Shown piece by piece: positions 36,641 to 36,896 of a stretch of 64,000 bases of DNA. The notes beneath the pieces were generated by a model. That model was not told the origin of the DNA. It worked only from the letters and a program-made list of their open reading frames with translations, and searched no databases. Positions within the stretch are counted from its first letter, which is position 1. Each line of letters begins with the position of its first letter. This DNA is from Escherichia phage Turkey3. The DNA lies in sequence record PQ471515.1; one strand, written 5' to 3'. Position numbers and translations under genes: made by a program.

Positions 36641-36736
36641 TTGTCTTCATTCCCCTGCGGGGGGATGAAAATGTCTTCAACAAATCCCGTCAAGTATTAA
36701 ATCTTTTAAAGTTCTTTATAATTAATTATAAGAAAT

Positions 36737-36800
36737 GAATATGAGTTACGTAGTAACGAATATTCTTCAGCTAACGAATGAAATGAGTTAGATGAGTTCA
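36737..36800. repeat. Short direct repeats in an AT-rich spacer
   Basis: TGAGTT(A/C) three times (36743, 36783, 36793) and TAACGAAT twice (36754, 36772), flanked by AATTAATT palindromes. Confidence 0.3.
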
Positions 36801-36858
36801 CTATAAAATAATTAATTCCTTTCATAATTCAATTCAATCAATTCTGTAGTTTAAAACC

Positions 36859-36885
36859 AAAAAAAAACCAGCAACAATGTGCTGG
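36859..36885 (-). terminator. Intrinsic terminator, minus strand
   Basis: Minus strand CCAGCA-cattgt-TGCTGG hairpin followed by a run of 9 T, directly after the stop of the 36897..37106 gene. Confidence 0.6.
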
Positions 36886-36896
36886 CTCCTTGTGAG

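Follow-up and report, generated by a model that had tools for sequence, protein, structure and literature searches.

Hairpins in a gene-free gap of Escherichia phage Turkey3 probably belong to an RNA element that follows a structured RNA gene

The window analysed here is the whole 64,000-nucleotide (nt) stretch of record PQ471515.1 from Escherichia phage Turkey3, numbered from its first letter. By megablast it belongs to an Asteriusvirus-type jumbo coliphage, with 99.8% identity to fEgEco12, WPEC5 and BF17 and 89–93% identity to 121Q and PBECO4. The element in question, segment 36690–36896, forms the right end of an 838-bp gap (36059–36896) without believable genes, located between an endonuclease VII gene and a small gene that is followed by the baseplate hub gene (Table 1). 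No plus-strand gene is found downstream of the segment at this locus. The treatment of the gap in GenBank varies, as it is either left empty or filled with small open reading frames (ORFs), such as g340 and g341 of fEgEco12. The original prediction, made from the letters of the window, described the segment as an AT-rich, repeat-bearing and transcriptionally insulated stretch between two opposing terminators, and took it for an array of protein-binding sites (replication origin, packaging site or regulatory site).

As a description of the sequence this was accurate. TGAGTT(A/C) occurs at 36742, 36784 and 36793, and these are three of the 19 TGAGTT words in the window. A further TGAGTTA, the fourth, starts at 36893 and shares bases with the stop codon of the neighbouring gene. 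TAACGAAT is present at 36754 and 36772, and AATTAATT at 36720 and 36810 on the two flanks, in both cases two out of three occurrences in the window. The G+C content is 26.6% compared to 36.7% for the window. Both terminators consist of a G+C-rich stem-loop and a U-run on the transcribed strand. The stem of the plus-strand terminator covaries across genera in an alignment of 13 syntenic loci (helix 19 of the RNA model described below). The minus-strand terminator, with a run of nine A preceding its stem on the plus strand, serves the small gene to its right, and its CCAGCA...TGCTGG stem and A-run are kept in all syntenic loci. Three repeat statistics combined were reached by 0.25% of 2000 dinucleotide-preserving shuffles (P ~0.003) and by 0.8% of 207-nt tiles of the window, and the repeat richness is thus moderately beyond chance. 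The longest direct repeats inside the segment are 8 nt, twice each, and are explained as hairpin arms and loops, while a 13-nt direct repeat (D1) overlaps only its left edge.

Careful inspection of the repeated words revealed that they are halves of inverted repeats, which had been overlooked earlier. The direct repeats are the arms and loops of two hairpins, A and B. The arms of hairpin A (36737–36749 and 36753–36765) carry, at its base, the first copies of TGAGTTA and TAACGAAT. The second TAACGAAT, together with the next TGAGTTA, makes up the stem and loop of hairpin B, whose 3' arm also contains the start of the third TGAGTT. A common frame, GAAT(A)T-GA-[inner hairpin]-GA-AAATTC-TT-[hairpin B], is found in 28 of 59 distinct trailers, the name used here for the sequence that follows each copy of the RNA gene described below. 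The inner hairpins range from 13 to 39 nt and comprise at least 14 unrelated, fully compensated stems. A4 has one base inserted in each arm of hairpin A, a compensatory change (GTTAAC/GTTAAC), and JNE01 has one extra loop base. Among ten variants of hairpin B, eight of the nine stem positions are always Watson-Crick; five of the nine show at least two pair types with none broken. Position 4 is a purine-purine mismatch in nine of the ten variants (A.G seven times, G.A twice), and is repaired to T-A in Turkey5. The base pairing of hairpins A and B is therefore maintained by compensatory changes, a pattern that a hairpin of single-stranded DNA would give equally.

The core holding the two hairpins (36735–36800) is 94–99% identical across Asteriusvirus, compared to 72–91% for the spacer on its left and 35–80% for positions 36801–36860 on its right. 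JNE01 exemplifies this, with 99% identity in the core and 45–72% in the flanks. Because identity is higher in the core than in the flanks, the core is under selection, unlike the surrounding AT-rich stretches. The claim that the segment is not random spacer is thereby supported, and conservation in relatives, the check proposed with it, was found for the core. Furthermore, the hairpins are retained at the syntenic position between endonuclease VII and baseplate hub in four genera, with only the convergent terminator after them. In each of 28 cores compared, the plus strand folds more stably than the minus strand (-18.3 vs -14.4 kcal/mol). Together with the conserved G.A mismatches, this indicates a folded single strand and not duplex sites. 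It also conflicts with the segment being transcriptionally insulated, which had been deduced from the two terminators. Two ORFs compete for the same sequence, one of 18 amino acids on the plus strand and one of 39 amino acids on the minus strand (g341). In JNE01 and A4, +1 and +2 nt indels disrupt both frames, and other genera lack the two ORFs altogether; since these core indels are not triplets, the candidate ORFs are ruled out.

The larger part of the gap is occupied by a real structured RNA gene of approximately 450 nt. Its promoter, identified by a consensus scan, is kept in 13 of 13 orthologous loci and belongs to a class, (T/C)G(G/A)GACA-N14-TGnTATAAT, that is abundant in fEgEco12 and precedes all four RNA copies there. 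The class corresponds to the “Promoter 1” predicted for CBB and GAP32 (PMC5259590, supplementary Table S6). Distant blastn searches gave 68–76% identity to positions 36217–36710 in Munch, GAP32, CBB, Serratia BF, Yersinia fHe-Yen9-04 and Xanthomonas XbC2. The 13 aligned syntenic loci share the conserved promoter, a body of ~430 nt and a hairpin followed by a T-run. No ORF longer than 28 amino acids is present on either strand within 36187–36588, and longer ones overlap only the 3' end of the RNA gene (49 amino acids on the plus strand, 36589–36738; 81 on the minus strand, 36438–36683).

The structure of this RNA is supported by 20 copies. Paired cells make up 95.1% of the predicted structure compared to 81.7% in shuffles, with none of 500 shuffles matching. 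A total of 51 pairs are changed on both sides compared to 9–16 with slid partners, and the covariation score is 0.381 compared to 0.04–0.09 in slid controls. A search of the whole window against Rfam 15 returned nothing at gathering thresholds. At E <= 10 on 36000–37000 the best match was Arrc14 (35.6 bits, where 99 are required, and due to the terminator hairpin), and the other matches there were likewise far below their thresholds. A scan for tRNA and tmRNA found none. The hypothetical proteins g340 and g341 of fEgEco12 lie across the RNA gene and its trailer, their frames are not conserved, and they are likely annotation artefacts. We consider the RNA gene to be probably more important than the trailer finding itself.

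Some further observations concern the RNA gene and its surroundings. In UE-S1 (ON568341.1, 311,350–311,507) the depositors annotated a “repeat_region” that equals the 5' third of the RNA gene; they had spotted its multi-copy nature and gave no interpretation. A resemblance of ACGACCGUUGCA and ACAGAGCAACCCGC to conserved regions of RNase P RNA, noted by eye, is not claimed, as no RNase P model matched at E <= 10. A kissing interaction between the AACGAA words of the trailer and an invariant UUUCGUUC of the RNA would allow 6–8 pairs. It was dropped because the changes in CBB (UUUCAUUC) and UE-S1 (UUCCGUUU) are not compensated in their trailers. In the left part of the gap, CGCATAAATATTTTG is found at ~36085–36099 on the minus strand, upstream of the endonuclease VII gene. 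It fits the late-promoter motif nTAAATA(A/T)T found before the capsid, tail and baseplate genes of fEgEco12. Judging from this match, endonuclease VII probably has its late promoter in this left part of the gap, pointing away from the promoter of the RNA gene.

The RNA gene is directly followed by a trailer of ~165 nt on the plus strand (36641–36806). A profile of this trailer matches the window once, and matches directly after the RNA gene in every locus; self-similarity and profile searches found no second copy of the RNA or the trailer within the window. The first trailer element, a GC hairpin, is present in every copy and near-invariant in more than 50 modules of many phages. Its G.U wobble on the plus strand is an A.C mismatch on the minus strand, and a C-to-U variant in BF and Yen9-04 is paired on the plus strand only. 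The single-stranded motif that follows is shared across copies as CAAATC(C/T)CGTCA(A)G (36681–36694). The direct repeat D1, CGTCAAG(A/T)ATTAA, is located at 36605–36617 and 36688–36700 on the plus strand and brackets the terminator and the GC hairpin. Its heptamer is either CGTCAAG or CGTCAG, with both copies changing together between clades, and in the module classes lacking a terminator two CGTCAG copies flank the GC hairpin alone. D1 could represent two sites for one factor, or a processing signal.

The left AATTAATT is part of a 16-nt palindrome in the variable spacer that is lost in JNE01, A4 and Turkey5. The surrounding AATTAATTAT at 36720 can pair without any mismatch with ATAATTAATT at 36808 (10 bp, inverted repeat I6), and a helix of these two words possibly encloses hairpins A and B. 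Three sequence versions in Asteriusvirus preserve the complementarity, those of the window, of the 121Q type (ATTAATTT/AAATTAAT) and of the JNE01 type (ATTATATT/AATATAAT), each with P = 0.01–0.21 against shuffles, which is statistically weak. Within 36641–36860 neither strand contains a sigma-70-like site or TGnTATAAT, and the late TAAATA class is represented by near-misses only (TTAAATC and TATAAAATA). A bare TATAAT at 36717–36722 was rejected as a promoter, as it has no -35 or TG and is lost in ph0011.

Table 1. Features in and around the gap, by window position.
Feature	Position	Strand	Remarks
Endonuclease VII	35567–36058	-	left neighbour of gap
RNA gene promoter	36152–36180	+	TGAGACA, 13 nt, extended -10 TGCTATAAT; consensus scan
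Structured non-coding RNA gene	36187–36640	+	~450 nt including intrinsic terminator; ends inferred
Annotated g340/g341 ORFs	36438–36650, 36706–36825	-	similar small ORFs in SD-6_S16, JNE01, Turkey5
Intrinsic terminator	stem 36616–36635 + T6	+	7-bp stem, -9.5 kcal/mol, z -3.6
GC hairpin	36646–36669	+	UUCAUUCCCC-UGCG-GGGGGAUGAA; -16.9 kcal/mol, z -2.55; first trailer element
Conserved single-stranded motif	36681–36702	+	CAAATCCCGTCAAG then TATTAA; in all modules; unique in window
AT-rich variable spacer	36703–36734		left AATTAATT inside 16-nt palindrome 36716–36731
Hairpin A	36737–36765	+	GAAUAU/GA/GUUAC-GUA-GUAAC/GA/AUAUUC; inverted repeat I4 and RNAfold
Hairpin B	36767–36795	+	UCAGCUAAC - GAAUGAAAUGA - GUUAGAUGA
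Variable AT-rich filler	36801–36860		35–80% identity, indels among Asteriusvirus
Right AATTAATT (ATAATTAATT)	36808–36817	+	perfectly complementary to 36720–36729
Intrinsic terminator	36862–36891 + T9 (region 36859–36891)	-	-14.3 kcal/mol, z -3.4
Small gene	36897–37106	-	right neighbour of gap
Baseplate hub	37106–37990		after small minus-strand gene 36897–37106

The unit of RNA and trailer is repeated within genomes. The whole genome of fEgEco12 contains four such modules, all on the plus strand, at 59.9, 110.7, 195.7 and 307.1 kb. The module at 195.7 kb corresponds to this locus, and none of the four lies in the terminal repeat. Four to five modules per genome are present in 121Q, GAP32, CBB, BF and Yen9-04, and modules also occur in uncultured relatives (IMG/VR pattern scan). 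A scan of 596 Gb of bacterial genomes gave 73 pattern matches with a single true homologue, found on a 620-kb contig of Citrobacter amalonaticus P55 (NZ_JBALIF010000001.1) in AT-rich, phage-like DNA. This copy has the promoter TGAAACA-N14-TGTGGTATAAT, and its flanks have no megablast match to known phages. It is probably an uncatalogued jumbo phage, possibly carried or pseudolysogenic, within a bacterial assembly.

What follows hairpin B differs between the copies. Several paralogous copies and copies from other genera have a Shine-Dalgarno sequence and a plus-strand ATG 15–40 nt after hairpin B, and the genes found there include an ADP-ribosylglycohydrolase (BF) and a methylase-like gene (Yen9-04). 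In one class (class II) hairpin B has GGAG as its loop, with the ATG overlapping the 3' arm; several copies of this class have a late-promoter-like TAAATA just upstream of hairpin A that matches the derived late motif. A conserved protein whose sequence begins with M(E/N)L..(D/E)N(E/K)YF starts exactly at the 3' end of hairpin B in the class II modules, and the gene at copy 2 of fEgEco12 and 121Q (g258) may be a homologue of this protein with a mis-called start codon. Two other classes have a comparable hairpin and then a predicted promoter. One of these promoters is Porf_524 of the CBB authors, whose -35 and spacer have the same 9-bp shape with a mismatch at position 4 (PMC5259590). Copies 1 and 4 of fEgEco12 are without an intrinsic terminator. 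In copy 4 the module leads straight on to a good TTGACA-17-TAGAAT promoter and then to the following gene. In copy 1 it continues to TAGACA and TATAAT, which are ~11–12 nt apart and thus too close for sigma-70, with the next gene behind them. Because of these contexts (ribosome-binding sites, promoters, a next gene), the trailer would in general be a regulatory leader region between the RNA gene and whatever follows.

The segment is the distal part of the trailer of a repeated module of Rak2-like jumbo phages. In order, this module consists of a phage-type promoter, the ~450-nt RNA (with a terminator at this locus), the GC hairpin, CAAAUCCCGUCAAG, an AT-rich linker, and hairpins A and B, with a conserved tandem G.A internal loop at the base of A and a conserved purine-purine mismatch in B. 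Since the hairpins elsewhere are located just upstream of the ribosome-binding site of the next gene, we read the segment as the structured leader or trailer of this module, predicted to be transcribed from the plus strand and to act via its folded hairpins. We give this reading an even chance of being right in full; the more general statement, that the segment is an RNA element rather than an origin or packaging site in the DNA, is probably correct. Trailer RNA could arise if the polymerase passes the upstream terminator, which is modest, or if transcription begins at an unrecognised start close to CGTCAAG-TATTAA. The folded RNA would then most likely work as a leader that binds a protein or confers stability. 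Elsewhere, in the other copies and in other genera, the hairpins would be part of the 5' untranslated region of the following gene, and in the class with a ribosome-binding site in the loop of hairpin B the leader may control the stability or translation of that gene's mRNA. Here the segment would either be an orphan leader or prolong the RNA at its 3' end as far as the convergent terminator. Purifying selection within Asteriusvirus suggests that the element is still functional.

Several points weigh against this. None of the three recognisable promoter classes is found inside the segment, so that expression rests on an assumed read-through, and the segment lies downstream of a covarying intrinsic terminator. 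With no gene following here, a leader has nothing obvious to lead. A hairpin in displaced plus-strand DNA could likewise account for the covariation of the inverted repeats, the G.A mismatches and the strand bias, and loops of the C-GNA-G type are well known as stable mini-hairpins of DNA. In position and shape, hairpin B matches the -35 and spacer of the predicted sigma-70 promoters of other classes, and part of the conservation could reflect promoter ancestry. Moreover, the compared sequences are related and the variant counts do not represent independent events.

The most probable rival, even though we consider it unlikely, is a decayed promoter and leader region: the hairpins may be relics of a hairpin-plus-promoter unit of a lost gene, with their conservation mainly due to recent common ancestry. 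Hairpin B aligns with TTGACA-containing hairpins of other genera and shares its 9-bp shape, including the mismatch at position 4, with the -35/spacer of Porf_524; the -35 in the window is now TTCAGC with no usable -10, and no plus-strand gene follows. Against this, the core within Asteriusvirus is far better conserved than the sequence 10–60 nt on either side. The changes that did occur preserve structure (the double insertion in A4, the mismatch repair in Turkey5 and changes confined to loops), and the hairpins persist at a syntenic, gene-less position in four genera.

A replication origin is a little less probable still. The upstream RNA would serve as primer or form an R-loop, the AT-rich trailer would unwind, and the hairpins of the displaced plus strand would load primase or helicase. 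The circumstantial points in favour are a promoter-driven RNA of ~450 nt immediately upstream, a G6/C4 run at the junction and an AT-rich linker of 26.6% G+C, and there are several copies per genome. Phage T4 has several origins, and the ColE1 RNA II and the T4 oriF/oriG transcripts are precedents for RNA primers and R-loops. Plus-strand-specific hairpins fit a displaced strand equally well, and loops of the C-GAA-G type are stable in DNA. AT-rich linkers are general in a genome of 36% G+C and these stretches are the least conserved. No iterons, taken as at least three direct repeats of ~17–22 bp at regular spacing, were found in 36690–36896, where the repeats are 6–8 nt and explained by the hairpins. 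The cumulative GC skew follows gene orientation without inflection at the four modules, although for a T4-like replicon this test is a weak one. In modules of this class a covarying terminator separates the RNA from the trailer, and folded-RNA covariation runs throughout the RNA body; both argue against an origin, and the hairpins that abut or contain ribosome-binding sites elsewhere are a better fit to mRNA leaders.

An array of duplex DNA sites for a phage or host regulator, such as a dimeric protein on inverted repeats, corresponds to the regulatory site of the original prediction, and we regard it as improbable. Dyad symmetry, the repeated AACGAA and ATGAGTT words and the high conservation of the core speak for it, and AACGAA-type words resemble the TGAAACG element of the “Promoter 1” class of CBB. 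A single regulator would, however, need a conserved sequence, whereas the stems differ between genera and between paralogs of one genome and only the pairing is kept. The repeats are the strands and loops of stem-loops, the conserved G.A and A.G mismatches and the tandem G.A are meaningless in duplex DNA, the plus strand always gives the more stable fold, and the motifs have no other occurrence in the window.

Chance repeats in AT-rich filler, or a small protein-coding gene (g341, 39 amino acids, minus strand), are very improbable. AT-rich sequence does easily yield short repeats, the AATTAATT words and the 16-nt palindrome are not conserved, and gene callers place small ORFs here; against this stand the combined repeat statistics, the selection on the core and the frameshifting indels described above. 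A packaging (pac) site or genome terminus, suggested only by a general look that is AT-rich, repeat-bearing and gene-free, is hardly credible, as the physical ends of fEgEco12 are 20,993-bp direct terminal repeats at the ends of the record, determined by PhageTerm and confirmed with restriction digests (PMC13070987), while this locus maps to ~196.2 kb, none of the four modules lies in the terminal repeat, and the terminase genes are at ~133.6 and 218–220 kb.

A more far-reaching idea, for which we see a small chance, is that the RNA with its fixed trailer constitutes a new functional ribonucleoprotein or ribozyme-like module of giant phages. In one version the modules would be RNA-primed origins, with a ColE1-like RNA and primosome-loading hairpins, in four to five copies around a genome of 350 kb. 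In the other the RNA would be a new large RNA class. Its protein handle or cis substrate would be the trailer hairpins, characterised by the tandem G.A base and the conserved G.A mismatch, and the trailer would couple the RNA to the expression of the next gene.

Rak2-like jumbo phages are in development for therapy, and most of their genome is unannotated. A gap of ~840 bp that appeared empty holds a large covarying RNA gene absent from Rfam and a conserved structured trailer, a unit found in four to five copies per genome in at least four genera, and existing annotations are corrected accordingly. If the trailer is an RNA leader, it would imply a shared post-transcriptional control of unrelated accessory genes; if it is active as DNA, it would locate the replication origins of the clade. 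Either way, the G.A base of hairpin A and the mismatch of hairpin B are targets for mutation. No description of the RNA family, of the trailer, or of a replication origin of these phages was found in the searchable literature.

Among known systems, the T4-like intercistronic and 5' untranslated region hairpins and operators, such as the C(UUCG)G hairpins and the gene 32, gene 43 and regA operators, act on mRNA stability or translation. Hairpins A and B resemble them in being short, very stable intergenic phage stem-loops that are found near ribosome-binding sites. They differ in the tandem G.A base, the conserved purine-purine mismatch and the C-GNA-G loops. Furthermore, the trailer is tied to a large structured RNA gene in four to five copies per genome, and no gene follows here.

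The combination of a structured RNA that is promoter-driven and several hundred nucleotides long, a G/C run, AT-rich DNA and strand-specific hairpins is similar to the layout of ColE1 RNA II, its origin and primosome site, and to the T4 R-loop origins (oriF, oriG, oriE). Unlike these, the module has no antisense partner of the RNA I type, no iterons and no skew signal. Also, a terminator precedes the trailer, and the hairpins abut ribosome-binding sites elsewhere.

Closer to home, the early region of fEgEco12 contains terminator-promoter units at 315,205, 321,842, 326,464 and 327,047 with the sequence GGGTTGAC-TTCG-GTCAGCCC-TTTTT-TGCTATAAT. In these units terminator and promoter overlap, as the -35 (TTGACT) of the promoter that follows is located in the 5' arm of a terminator hairpin with a UUCG loop. 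Similarly, hairpin B has a -35-like TTGAC(T/A) in its 5' arm in most genera. The U-run and the perfect extended -10 of the overlap units are both missing from hairpin B, and its 5' arm in the window is no longer -35-like.

The GOLLD, ROOL and PA5oct non-coding RNAs share with the upstream RNA a length of hundreds of nucleotides, a phage-borne location, extensive covariation or strong expression, and the lack of a known role. In PA5oct, a related jumbo phage, the non-coding RNAs defined by RNA sequencing are 236–619 nt long, and the two highly transcribed ones in the terminal repeat, ncRNA1 and ncRNA2, have sequence similarity to MIJ3 only (PMC7318152). The module described here differs in matching no Rfam 15 family, and its arrangement in several copies with a fixed trailer appears to be undescribed in the searchable literature. 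The element belongs to none of the compared systems, and in kind it is one of the structured non-coding elements of phage intergenic regions.

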